Sequence record: MG589383
From: Shigella phage phi25-307
Reading direction: 5' to 3' (one strand)
Length of the DNA: 64,000 bases
Part shown: piece by piece, positions 38,282-42,246 of the stretch
How positions within the stretch are numbered: position 1 is the stretch's first letter
How the letters are laid out: every line of letters starts with the position of its first letter
Made by a program: the position numbers and the translations under genes
The notes under the pieces: model-generated
What the model saw: only the letters and a program-made list of their open reading frames with translations
Databases searched by the model: none
What the model was told of the DNA's origin: nothing

Positions 38282-38488
38282 TTAGCCAGTATTTATTTTT
38301 CGCCTTTGGACGGCCTTAACATCTGTGAGGTATTTTTCCAGCTTGCGCTTGCGTGTATAATCAGCTTTAGAACCAGTTTGACGGATATCCTCGTTTAAAT
38401 GAGAAATAGAATGTCCTAATTCTCTTCGGATTTCATCCAATTGGGTTACAGTAAGATTACGAAGTTGTTTTTCGTTTAATTGCTGCAT
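38282..38488 (-). CDS. hypothetical protein (68 aa)
   Basis: ORF. Confidence 0.45.
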
Positions 38489-38515
38489 ATATACCTCTTG
38501 GTTAGATATTAGTAT

Positions 38516-39097
38516 TTATAACAACCCTGTCAAATCATTCCAATGCTTCCGGCATAATGACACATATCTATCAGTATCACCAATTTCAATTTGACTGCCA
38601 TCTGTAATTGGAAGTCCGTCTTCAGTGACTCTAGCTACCATTGTGGCCTTTTTACCACAATGACAGACACCTTTAAGTTCAACAAGCTTATCGGCAATAG
38701 CCATTAATGCTTGAGAACCTTCAAATAGATTACCTTTAAAATCTGTTCGTAGTCCATATGCCATTACCGGCACATTGTATACGTCAACAATACGACTAAG
38801 TTGATACACCTTTTCAGTAGTTAAGAACTGAGCTTCGTCAACAAATACACAATGAATATCCTTTTGTGCTGTAGCCCATTTATAGAATTCAAAGATATCC
38901 ATGTCTTTTGTAATTATATTGGCGTCCTGACGAATACCAATACGAGAGACTATTTCACCTTTTGAATCGCGAGTATCAATAGCCGGTTTAAGAACTAATA
39001 CACCCATGCCACGTTCTTTATAGTTATGGGCGGCAGTCAAAAGAGAAGCAGATTTTCCAGCATTCATTGCTGCATAAGTAAAAATTAAACTCGCCAT
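38516..39097 (-). CDS. tk: thymidine kinase
   Basis: 193 aa; P-loop AAMNAGKS, VDEAQF, C-terminal CxCG...C..H zinc motif. Confidence 0.9.
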   Translation of the reverse strand: MASLIFTYAAMNAGKSASLLTAAHNYKERGMGVLVLKPAIDTRDSKGEIVSRIGIRQDANIITKDMDIFEFYKWATAQKDIHCVFVDEAQFLTTEKVYQLSRIVDVYNVPVMAYGLRTDFKGNLFEGSQALMAIADKLVELKGVCHCGKKATMVARVTEDGLPITDGSQIEIGDTDRYVSLCRKHWNDLTGLL

Positions 39098-39098
39098 C

Positions 39099-39287
39099 TT
39101 AGTCCTTAGTTAAATTTTCTAAATATGTTTCTAAATCATTTTCAGCTTTATCGATAGATTTTACTAATTCGTAGTATGTTTCAGCATCTCCATAATCCGA
39201 AGCCAATTCAAAAGATAAATCTCGTTCTAAACTAATAATTTCACTGATTAAAAATCGTATTTCATTCTTTTGTTCGCGAGTAATCAT
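39099..39287 (-). CDS. hypothetical acidic protein (62 aa)
   Basis: ORF. Confidence 0.4.
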   Translation of the reverse strand: MITREQKNEIRFLISEIISLERDLSFELASDYGDAETYYELVKSIDKAENDLETYLENLTKD

Positions 39288-39490
39288 AAGGAATTTATAT
39301 AATCAATAAGTTCTTGTTCTTTATCGTCGAAATCTTTACACAGTTCTTCGTATTCGTCGGTATTAAAAGGACCGCATTCATCGCAAACTTTTTCCAATTC
39401 ACTATTTTTATCAATAACTTCGTGAATAAGAGAAAACAGTCTGTCTTTTTGTTCTTTACTTAAACTCATAACCATGTAACCTTTAAGCAA
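39284..39490 (-). CDS. hypothetical acidic protein (68 aa)
   Basis: ORF. Confidence 0.4.
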   Translation of the reverse strand: MLKGYMVMSLSKEQKDRLFSLIHEVIDKNSELEKVCDECGPFNTDEYEELCKDFDDKEQELIDYINSL

Positions 39491-39693
39491 TATTCTTCTA
39501 CATGTTGTTTACGACCTTTCTTATCAATAAAGGTATATTCAACGAATGTTCCAATATAGTCTTTATCTACATCATGTGGACTATTAATTGGGCATTTAGT
39601 ACGGCAAATGCGTTCCCATTGACGAATAATTACTGCCTTATTCTTTGGGTCATATGGATGTGGATAATGTATATTCATAATAATGGTTCCCAA
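39466..39693 (-). CDS. hypothetical protein (75 aa)
   Basis: ORF. Confidence 0.4.
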   Translation of the reverse strand: MGTIIMNIHYPHPYDPKNKAVIIRQWERICRTKCPINSPHDVDKDYIGTFVEYTFIDKKGRKQHVEEYCLKVTWL

Positions 39694-40142
39694 TCAACAA
39701 TCACAATTTCTAGTTTAGTGGAATACGTATCTAAAATCTCTTCGATGACGTCCCAGTTTCCACCACCAATACCTGCACCAATTCTTGGCATATAAATTAC
39801 AGGCTTTGTTATCTTATTCTTTCCGAATTCATTTAATTCTATTATACAATTCATTAAAGCATAGTACTCAAAATTAGGTCCCGGCTCAAACTGCGTATAA
39901 AGATTAAAGCAATAAGCTTTATGGGTCTTAAAATATTTTTCATAAACCGAATAAGTCCCGAGTTTAGACTCGTCTCCGAATTCGGTTTGAAGTTTATCGG
40001 CTTCCAGAATTTTTGGATAAGCCTTTGCTAATTGTCCTGCCACACCGGCGCCCATTGTATGAAAACAATTACACCCGTGAGCAATATTATTACCTTTAGA
40101 AAACAGGGCGACAATATCGCCCTTGATATAGTTTTTAATCAC
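39675..40142 (-). CDS. macro-domain protein (ADP-ribose binding/processing)
   Basis: HGCNCFHTMGAGVAGQL and PRIGAGIGGG motifs; likely GTG start at 40142. Confidence 0.65.
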   Translation of the reverse strand: MIKNYIKGDIVALFSKGNNIAHGCNCFHTMGAGVAGQLAKAYPKILEADKLQTEFGDESKLGTYSVYEKYFKTHKAYCFNLYTQFEPGPNFEYYALMNCIIELNEFGKNKITKPVIYMPRIGAGIGGGNWDVIEEILDTYSTKLEIVIVDWEPLL

Positions 40143-40482
40143 TTGCTGCAAGTCCTCTAGTATAAGAGTCAACTAGACGGTCCACCATAGAATTGCATGC
40201 TGCCTTATCTTTAGGTTCCGCCACCGAGCATTCTAATATTTGCCATTTTTTATAGTATCTTTTAATTAAGGTAGACGCCTTGAACCTACTAGACGCCCCA
40301 TCTTTTTCTCCGTCTTTATACGCATATAACAATTTTTGTGAAAAATCTACTTTACACTCTTGACTTTTACCACAATAATCAGACGCCGTTCTGTTTGTAT
40401 ACTCCGTTACATCAGTATATGTAGTATTAGCAAGAGCGCTAAATGAAACCAAGCCAACTATTAAAGCCAACATTTTGGTCAT
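40135..40482 (-). CDS. secreted protein (signal peptide, Cys-containing)
   Basis: MLALIVGLVSFSALA signal-like N-terminus. Confidence 0.5.
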   Translation of the reverse strand: MTKMLALIVGLVSFSALANTTYTDVTEYTNRTASDYCGKSQECKVDFSQKLLYAYKDGEKDGASSRFKASTLIKRYYKKWQILECSVAEPKDKAACNSMVDRLVDSYTRGLAASD

Positions 40483-41021
40483 TCTTTTATTTCCAGTAGT
40501 TTATTTGATTTAAGGTAATTAGCCTTTTCTAGGACTTCAGAAGCATATTTACTTCCAGCACTTGTCTTCCATCCCGCATTATATGAGGATATAGCTTTTC
40601 TTATATCCCCGTTATGTATATTTAACCAATAAGAAAATTCGATATAAGCCCATCTGGCTGAATTAGACCGCTTAGATAGCATTTTCTTAATTTGGGCATC
40701 AGTCATATTATAACCAAGCTGGTTAATTCTTGCCCTCATTGTTGGTAGATAATTTTGGAACATTCCATACGCATGGTGACCTTTCTTATCTTTAAGATTA
40801 ATACCTGCAGATGATTCCTGCCATAGTATTGCGGCCATTATGTATCCAAGTCCTTTCTTATGCATATTTTCATGCGTTTTAAATTTTCCATCCTTAGAAA
40901 ACTGTTCCCCAAACTGATAAGCATAATTCAAGTTATCGAGTTGGACATTACTAAAAGTATGCTCGGAGCTATGTGCTGATAATGAAAGAGCAAATAGACC
41001 AGCGAGTAGTGCTTTTCTCAT
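40479..41021 (-). CDS. secreted lytic-transglycosylase-like protein
   Basis: signal peptide; WQESS and YGMFQ motifs resembling the SLT catalytic region. Confidence 0.5.
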   Translation of the reverse strand: MRKALLAGLFALSLSAHSSEHTFSNVQLDNLNYAYQFGEQFSKDGKFKTHENMHKKGLGYIMAAILWQESSAGINLKDKKGHHAYGMFQNYLPTMRARINQLGYNMTDAQIKKMLSKRSNSARWAYIEFSYWLNIHNGDIRKAISSYNAGWKTSAGSKYASEVLEKANYLKSNKLLEIKE

Positions 41022-41029
41022 GTTTACCT

Positions 41030-41488
41030 CTAGATTTTAATCACTGCTTTAGAAGCTTTTCCTGGTAGTCGTTTACTGTTAATAATAGCCATTCTGCATT
41101 GAAGAGTCTTCATTTTGAATGCTGGACTTTCGCGACAAACTGTAAGTCCTAACCAAAGATTTCCATCAGTTATTTCTAAACGGCCTGGACGATATTCGAC
41201 ACCTTCGACAAAATCTTCATCAACATCCGGACGTGCCGGCATTGATAAAAATTCTGCAACTTCTTTAACATGATTTTTTACTTTACGAAATAATTCAAAA
41301 ACGTAGTTCTCATCTATTTCTCTCTGTATAGCACGATCTAAGAGATGTTGAGAATACTTGATATGAAAGCCTGGTAGTCCAAGAGACTTTGCAGCATCTT
41401 TTATACCGGCATTTATTTTGCGGAACTCCGTTTCAAAGATTCGACGGAGTTTATTACGGCGGATAAAAACGTCAGAATTGATAGTCAT
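41030..41488 (-). CDS. regB: RegB endoribonuclease
   Basis: 152 aa; MTIN..VFIRRNKLRR.FE.EFR.IN ... CRMAIINS.RLPGKASKAVIK matches T4 RegB. Confidence 0.9.
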   Translation of the reverse strand: MTINSDVFIRRNKLRRIFETEFRKINAGIKDAAKSLGLPGFHIKYSQHLLDRAIQREIDENYVFELFRKVKNHVKEVAEFLSMPARPDVDEDFVEGVEYRPGRLEITDGNLWLGLTVCRESPAFKMKTLQCRMAIINSKRLPGKASKAVIKI

Positions 41489-41517
41489 TTTTGATTTCTC
41501 CTCTAGTTGACAGTTCT

Positions 41518-41546
41518 ATAGTAACACATCTAGAGGAGAAGTAAAC
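41518..41546 (-). promoter_or_regulatory. early promoter (GTTTAC-17-TACTAT) for regB
   Basis: cagttctatagtaaca ... gtaaac. Confidence 0.5.
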
Positions 41547-41550
41547 TACT

Positions 41551-41766
41551 TTATTGATAAAATGGAGTTAAAGCCCAAGATTCTTTAGATACCATATCGG
41601 CGAAATGCCTCATCTCTTCGATTTGGCGACGACGCTGGTCAGCATAGTCTTCTTCGCCTTCTTCCTTACAATCTTCAAGGTCTTCTTCAAGATACTTTAA
41701 GTATTCACTACAAATTTTGTTGACCTTTTCTTGAAAGTCCAATAACCCGGTAATAGTAGAAGCCAT
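41551..41766 (-). CDS. hypothetical acidic protein (71 aa)
   Basis: ORF. Confidence 0.45.
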   Translation of the reverse strand: MASTITGLLDFQEKVNKICSEYLKYLEEDLEDCKEEGEEDYADQRRRQIEEMRHFADMVSKESWALTPFYQ

Positions 41767-42032
41767 TAGTATTTTTCCTCAGGTCGAAATACCGCACGGC
41801 ATGCCCACATGCTGGCTTCTTTTAGATGTTGCTTAGCATACTTAAGAGCCTGCACTGCATCCATATCTTCTTTGGTTTGTTGCTCTGATTCATTTTCTTT
41901 CAAGATATATGCTTCTTCAATCAGAGCATCAAACATCAATCCAAGACGGACTTCTGCGTCTTTAATAGCGTTCACTTTACTGATTTTATCATCGGTATGT
42001 GGCTTGTAGCCTTTGATGTCTTCAATCGACAT
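41766..42032 (-). CDS. hypothetical protein (88 aa)
   Basis: ATG at 42032 with RBS GAGGAAATTCC. Confidence 0.45.
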   Translation of the reverse strand: MSIEDIKGYKPHTDDKISKVNAIKDAEVRLGLMFDALIEEAYILKENESEQQTKEDMDAVQALKYAKQHLKEASMWACRAVFRPEEKY

Positions 42033-42246
42033 AAGGAATTTCCTCATCGGTGGCAAGGTCATATTCAACCAATTGGATAGGCTCATTAATACCATATCCA
42101 CGTACAGTGATATCGGTTGACGGATATTTTCCAGTAATATCACCCGTTCTAAATGCTTCAATGAATGATTGCTCGCCTGAGCAACTAAACCAGGCGGCAA
42201 AACATTTTAAAACATCTTCAGACCCTTCTATAATCAATTTAGCCAT
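42022..42246 (-). CDS. hypothetical protein (74 aa)
   Basis: ORF. Confidence 0.45.
   Translation of the reverse strand: MAKLIIEGSEDVLKCFAAWFSCSGEQSFIEAFRTGDITGKYPSTDITVRGYGINEPIQLVEYDLATDEEIPYVD

Follow-up and report, generated by a model that had tools for sequence, protein, structure and literature searches.

tk.4/adfM of Shigella phage phi25-307: a Mosigvirus orthologue of the T4 macrodomain gene linked to DarTG2 resistance

The stretch of DNA analysed here, referred to as the window, comprises 64,000 nucleotides of Shigella phage phi25-307 (MG589383). It contains a co-oriented and tightly packed block of genes in the order regB-vs.1-vs-tk.4-tk.3-tk.2-tk.1-tk. The gene tk.4, also called adfM, and its features are as follows.

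39675..40142, minus strand: tk.4/adfM coding sequence, 155 codons plus a TGA stop, for a predicted single-domain macrodomain protein
40140..40142, minus strand: GTG start codon of tk.4, aligned with the ATG of T4 tk.4
40153..40157, minus strand: Shine-Dalgarno-like GAGGA, 10 nt upstream of the GTG and inside the 3' end of vs
40032..40079, minus strand: loop 1, HGCNCFHTMGAGVAGQ, residues 22-37, with H22, the invariant N25 and a GxG phosphate-binding motif
40068-40070, minus strand: codon of N25
39891..39893, minus strand: CAG codon of Gln84, at the position of DarG Lys80, TARG1 Lys84 and SCO6735 Gln85
39759..39788, minus strand: loop 2, PRIGAGIGGG, residues 119-128, the diphosphate-binding loop
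39675..39678, minus strand: ATGA overlap of the tk.4 stop (TGA) and the tk.3 start (ATG), from the sequence and the moskry annotation

Read from the window, the open reading frame ends with the TGA at 39675-39677 on the minus strand, and its mechanical upper limit is a TTG at 40172, giving 165 aa. The first-pass annotation had preferred the GTG as the start, and comparison with relatives bears this out. T4 tk.4 has an ATG at exactly the aligned position, and T4 Tk.4 cannot be longer because an in-frame TAG directly precedes this ATG. In the RB69 and moskry records the gene starts at this GTG, and the junction sequence is that of the window. The GAGGA motif, which sequence comparison finds kept in T4, RB69 and moskry, would be the Shine-Dalgarno element of tk.4. 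Two longer N-termini were rejected: the TTG at 40172 falls within the vs coding sequence, and the TTG at 40151 is separated from the GAGGA motif by a single nucleotide. The stop upstream in T4 and the annotation of the close relatives speak against both, and the spacing of GAGGA fits the GTG only.

The first codons of tk.4 contain the vs stop codon (TAA, 40135-40137), and from the close packing we infer translational coupling within the block. For tk.3 (39466-39693, minus strand), the mechanical list of reading frames takes the TTG at 39693 as its start. The likelier choice is the ATG at 39676-39678, which agrees with the 213-nt gene annotated in moskry. The order regB-vs.1-vs-tk.4-tk.3-tk.2-...-tk is common to T4 and RB69, but tk.3 is absent in RB69. 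At this place RB69 (NC_004928, 7317-7960) is without both tk.3 and tk.1, so that tk.2 comes directly after tk.4, and a tk.1-like gene labelled 'helicase loader' is located elsewhere. Comparison of RB69 with the close relatives thus indicates that the small genes around tk.4 vary and that tk.4 itself is retained. There is no darT next to tk.4, whose neighbours are vs and tk.3. The tk.4 family profile matches this reading frame only, and no second macrodomain was found in the window.

The predicted products of vs (40135-40482) and vs.1 (40479-41021), both on the minus strand, have signal-peptide-like hydrophobic N-termini, MTKMLALIVGLVSFSALA and MRKALLAGLFALSLSAHS. For Vs this is surprising, since its annotation as 'valyl-tRNA synthetase modifier' is that of a cytoplasmic protein. 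The preprint on the HIDEN-SEQ transposon screen describes vs as the T4 gene with the strongest depletion in minimal medium (bioRxiv 10.1101/2025.11.20.689424). Several product names in the moskry record (MN850651; moskry_130, _133, _139 and _140) are doubtful and apparently copied from other records: the name 'endoribonuclease RegB' is given to homologues of vs.1, vs.7 and vs.8, and 'putative ABC transporter ATP-binding protein' to tk.3.

Over the 3.2 kb around tk.4, many Escherichia phages of the genus Mosigvirus (Tevenvirinae) share 97-98% identity with the window; for several hundred other T-even phages the figure is about 60-80%. The window protein shares 99% identity (151/153) with RB69 Tk.4 (NP_861803) and 84% (130/155, ungapped, over the full length) with T4 Tk.4 (NP_049723). 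Length, start position and all invariant residues are the same in T4 and RB69, and T4 also shares the position between vs and tk.3. The window phage and RB69 begin the gene with GTG and T4 with ATG, and none of the 25 substitutions that separate T4 Tk.4 from the window protein falls at an invariant position. The gene is therefore the Mosigvirus orthologue of T4 tk.4, in a T4-like phage of the RB69 type. Homologues were detected by tblastn in 2,791 of 50,697 phage records. In RefSeq, those of T4 and RB69 are described as "phosphatase; Tk.4; contains A1pp phosphatase motif", and other records carry the labels "macro domain protein" or "Poa1p-like family protein". A 2026 preprint reports that the T2 tk.4 mRNA is a partner of the sRNA ArcZ, with the protein level unaffected; it mislabels T2 tk.4 as 'putative thymidine kinase'.

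What is known of the function comes from T4. [quoted passage not shown] When T4 and T2 were deprived of their anti-DarTG1 factors, AdfN and AdfA, they still resisted DarTG2, and a further factor had been predicted. In the T4 preprint, tk.4 was the sole significant T4 match in the HIDEN-SEQ screen on a DarTG2 host, and a clean deletion of tk.4 sensitised T4 to DarTG2; the T4 assays were run in M9 glucose at 30 C or with chloramphenicol below the MIC, and the gene was renamed adfM, for anti-DarT factor macrodomain (bioRxiv 10.1101/2025.11.20.689424). This result fills the gap left by the DarTG2-resistant adfN/adfA-less T4 and T2. Removal of ADP-ribose from DNA by T4 AdfM is the proposal of the authors, for which their evidence is genetic (bioRxiv 10.1101/2025.11.20.689424).

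Since T4 tk.4 emerged from the screen as the only gene needed for DarTG2 resistance, the function of the gene in the window can be regarded, by analogy with its orthologue, as largely known. The anti-DarTG2 phenotype itself has been demonstrated in T4 only; for the window protein, de-ADP-ribosylation of DNA and a glutamine-based mechanism are what we infer. The first-pass annotation had suggested reversal of host ADP-ribosylation. That part agrees with the screen and knockout of the T4 orthologue (84% identity), with the correction that the mark would be ADP-ribosyl-thymidine in DNA, not ADP-ribose on protein or in free form. Phage T5 (NC_005859), which is sensitive to DarTG2, has no homologue of Tk.4 or DarG type in a six-frame search (best tblastn E 4.7; no profile matches), and this lack fits its sensitivity as a single data point. 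T5 encodes two Sir2-like proteins, T5.102 and T5.105, which are NAD/ADP-ribose-related genes of another kind.

The protein had been called a macrodomain from its glycine-rich loops, and both of the motifs quoted, HGCNCFHTMGAGVAGQ and PRIGAGIGGG, are present in the translation of tk.4. Profiles, fold and structural matches now agree on this assignment. Pfam Macro PF01661 scores 27.4 bits, above its gathering score of 22, and covers positions 2-117 of the 118 in the model; PHROG 335 matches with E = 2.7e-66. Structure prediction had been named beforehand as a possible point of refutation, and the AlphaFold2 model, built on 75 homologues, gave a macro fold (pLDDT 96.0, pTM 0.91). The predicted structure has the three-layer alpha/beta/alpha architecture and the two glycine-rich ADP-ribose-binding loops, and the top Foldseek matches in the PDB were all macrodomains: TARG1, Poa1p, DarG, BT1257 and SCO6735. 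On the model, the protein is a macrodomain of the ALC1-like class, together with TARG1, DarG, Poa1p and SCO6735.

Across 75 homologues, the most distant about 38% identical, no variation occurs at G23, N25, C26, G33, A35, D49, G62, N80, Y82, Q84, P119, I121, G122 and G124. N25 is the counterpart of SCO6735 N27, DarG N22 and PhiKZ AdfM N23, the importance of which has been demonstrated by mutation (PMC9411070, PMC13309987). G122 and G124 correspond to G126 and G128 of SCO6735, and H22 to its H24. Q84 belongs to the motif N80-x-Y82-T83-Q84 (NLYTQ), and mafft, hhalign and hmmsearch align it with the Gln of NMIGQ in BT1257 and SCO6735 and with Lys80 of NFPTK in Taq DarG. As judged by profile and multiple alignments, not by coordinates, Q84 occupies the position of the catalytic lysine of DarG and TARG1. 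A pairwise phmmer alignment to BT1257 that placed Q84 opposite an Asp was discarded, being out of register with the profile, multiple and profile-profile alignments.

The T4 preprint calls Tk.4 a DarG homologue (bioRxiv 10.1101/2025.11.20.689424). DarG is the only PADLOC model matched by the window protein (E = 2.5e-8, 31.8 bits), and the profile-profile probability against DarG-type sequences is 98.7%. On the DarG equivalog model (NCBIfam NF048014), whose cut-off is 250 bits, the window protein reaches 30.4 and covers only positions 4-146 of 338. DarG (PDB 5M31, 5M3E, 5M3I, 7OMU) has its catalytic Lys80 in FPTK where the window protein has Gln84 in LYTQ, and it has about 340 residues with a C-terminal DarT-binding domain, which the window protein, at 155 residues, is without. 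Identity with DarG is rejected on these three grounds: the score, the Gln for Lys80 and the missing domain. The tk.4 family profile gives 62.6 bits for BT1257, 54.2 for SCO6735, 46.5 for Taq DarG and 33.3 for PhiKZ gp104. By these sequence measures the kinship of Tk.4 with DarG is real but distant, and the T-even AdfM is SCO6735-like rather than DarG-like.

SCO6735 lacks the catalytic Lys and Asp of TARG1 and the Lys of DarG, and has Gln85 there (PMC9411070). On DNA thymidine it takes off DarT-made ADP-ribose at a higher rate than DarG does, and it protects E. coli against DarT (PMC9411070). Its Q85A mutation abolishes activity, N27S nearly does so, and G128E reduces it; in the mechanism proposed, Gln85 positions the distal ribose and a water molecule mediates the reaction (PMC9411070). 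SCO6735 (PDB 5E3B) and Bt_1257 (PDB 2FG1, 2AFC) share with the window protein the Gln at the catalytic-Lys position and the conserved Asn (Q85/N27 versus Q84/N25 here), at only about 22-30% identity. They are products of bacterial chromosomal genes, whereas tk.4 is a phage gene. The 'mobile loop' that follows the Gln in SCO6735, said to typify the subclass, is 5 residues shorter in the window protein. The DNA-positioning lysines of SCO6735 are also absent, K34 being A32 here and K89 lying in the missing loop. Full membership of the SCO6735/BT1257 group is therefore rejected, for want of the mobile loop and the two lysines; on the alignments, Tk.4 is treated as a putative sister lineage with the same catalytic layout.

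Taken together, it is likely that tk.4/adfM encodes a free-standing macrodomain of 155 residues that reverses the DarT2 ADP-ribosylation of phage DNA, probably by catalysis of the SCO6735/BT1257 type. The gene would be expressed from the regB-tk block. On infection, DarT2 toxin would be released from the DarTG2 toxin-antitoxin defence and would ADP-ribosylate thymidines at TNTC motifs in single-stranded phage DNA. The macrodomain would bind the ADP-ribose between its two glycine-rich loops and hydrolyse the ribose-thymine N-glycosidic bond, restoring DNA that can be replicated. Gln84, held by Asn25, probably positions the distal ribose, and water would do the chemistry, in contrast to DarG and TARG1, which rely on a catalytic lysine.

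Hydrolysis might be dispensable if the macrodomain bound and inhibited DarT2 or shielded the modified sites. The catalytically dead mutants SCO6735 Q85A, DarG K80A and TARG1 K84A inhibit DarT in vitro, that of SCO6735 most strongly (PMC9411070), and the T4 genetic data would look the same for hydrolysis and for binding (bioRxiv 10.1101/2025.11.20.689424). However, the window protein is without the C-terminal domain by which DarG binds DarT, and the full catalytic set is invariant in 75 homologues to about 38% identity, which points to selection for enzymatic activity. For counter-defence by an orphan gene, catalysis would also be the better fit, as has been argued for AdfN. A purely non-catalytic block is accordingly judged quite unlikely, and enzymatic removal of the mark is preferred.

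Poa1p (PDB 6LFQ-6LFU) is the second-best relative of the window protein, with similarity of sequence and fold that includes the HxCNC motif; H22 and T29 of the window protein correspond to Poa1p H23 and S30, mutated in PDB 6LFS and 6LFT. The substrates within this class differ: Poa1p acts on ADP-ribose-1''-phosphate, and TARG1/OARD1 (PDB 4J5R) on Glu/Asp-linked ADP-ribose of proteins and also on ADP-ribosyl-thymidine. Tk.4 might then be a housekeeping enzyme of small molecules, an ADP-ribose-1''-phosphate phosphatase or an O-acetyl-ADP-ribose deacetylase, with the DarTG2 phenotype secondary. The names 'phosphatase, A1pp motif' on which such a role leans are a carry-over by homology, none of them derived from an assay of a phage protein. 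The sole phenotype known for T4 tk.4 is specific to DarTG2. Moreover, at the position of Gln84, invariant in the Tk.4 homologues, Poa1p has a Ser in the pairwise phmmer alignment and TARG1/OARD1 has a Lys. We know of no source of ADP-ribose-1''-phosphate in T-even infection. Such a housekeeping role is considered very unlikely beside the removal of ADP-ribose from DNA.

The breadth of the class raises the question of other targets, protein or RNA, with marks made by the phage enzymes Alt, ModA and ModB or by another host transferase. T-even phages do encode ADP-ribosyltransferases, and a review describes macrodomains as versatile enzymes. SCO6735 and TARG1 also remove modifications from proteins (PMC9411070). 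Yet the T-even phages, although they carry tk.4, are sensitive to CmdTAC, an mRNA ADP-ribosyltransferase. There is no phenotype in support of reversal on protein or RNA. Alt and the Mod enzymes modify arginine, and to our knowledge the arginine linkage is not one that ALC1-like macrodomains cleave. Protein or RNA as the main target is thus held to be highly improbable. Slighter still is the probability that the protein degrades or sequesters immune signals derived from ADP-ribose (gcADPR and His-ADPR of Thoeris), as had also been proposed: it has no specific similarity to known anti-Thoeris proteins, and its match to ThsA is no better than that of any other macrodomain. No link of tk.4 to Thoeris, CmdTAC or the Alt/Mod enzymes was found in the literature. 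ADP-ribosyl-thymidine in DNA is retained as the probable substrate.

PhiKZ gp104 was independently named AdfM; it removes DarT2-made ADP-ribose from DNA in vitro, and its N23A mutant is impaired (PMC13309987). It resembles the window protein as a phage orphan macrodomain of similar size that counters DarTG2, with the same name, an MGAG loop and the conserved Asn. It differs in being of the DarG type: its sequence, taken as the translation of the published construct, has the FPTK lysine motif, matches Mtb DarG with E = 9e-25 and reaches 132.9 bits on the DarG model of PADLOC, where the window protein has 31.8. It also differs in having direct biochemical proof and in its import into the phage nucleus (PMC13309987). 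As compared at the level of sequence, the PhiKZ and T-even "AdfM" are different lineages of one fold class, and they were probably recruited separately. This distinction is mentioned neither in the Cell Rep 2026 paper (PMC13309987) nor in the accessible part of the T4 preprint (bioRxiv 10.1101/2025.11.20.689424).

A bolder reading would make the Tk.4-type AdfM a distinct and minimal third lineage of ADP-ribosyl-DNA hydrolases, with SCO6735-like Gln catalysis in the absence of the clamping loop and lysines, recruited independently of the PhiKZ AdfM and possibly different in substrate range. This is considered rather unlikely. If it were true, the mechanism would be one as yet undescribed for a viral protein. 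The enzyme might be tuned to TNT(hmC) DNA containing glucosyl-hydroxymethylcytosine. Its targets might also extend to ADP-ribose on other bases, on RNA or on proteins, giving protection beyond DarTG2. Homologues occur in about 2,800 phage records, and such an enzyme would then rank among the most widespread counter-defence enzymes of phages.

As an orthologue that already has a name and, via T4, an assigned function, tk.4 of the window is ordinary and no discovery. Its interest lies in that tk.4/adfM is the T-even escape from DarTG2, the thymidine-specific branch of these systems, which is relevant to the prediction of host range and to the choice and engineering of therapeutic phages. The legacy label "phosphatase (A1pp motif)" should become "anti-DarT2 macrodomain AdfM", with the proviso that the name AdfM now covers two unrelated macrodomain lineages, the T4 Tk.4 type with Gln and the PhiKZ gp104 type with Lys. 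The layout of Gln84 and Asn25 offers specific mutants for the study of mechanism. This active-site assignment and the SCO6735-like character of the T-even AdfM are the most useful outcome of the analysis.

With respect to expression, a promoter scan of 38400-42200 gave 8 sigma-70-like sites compared with 14.3 in shuffled sequence and was uninformative. At 40105-40123 on the minus strand, in codons 7-13 of tk.4, there is a GC-rich hairpin, AGGGCGAUAUUGUCGCCCU, followed by a U-rich tract and flagged as terminator-like. Located shortly past the end of vs, some 20 nt into the coding part of tk.4, it has the same sequence in T4, RB69 and moskry. The fold of minimum energy pairs the Shine-Dalgarno region of tk.4 with the U-rich tail (z = -2.4, a weak value). 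The hairpin may serve as an attenuator or for translational control, or it may be no more than a by-product of the conserved KGDIVAL codons.
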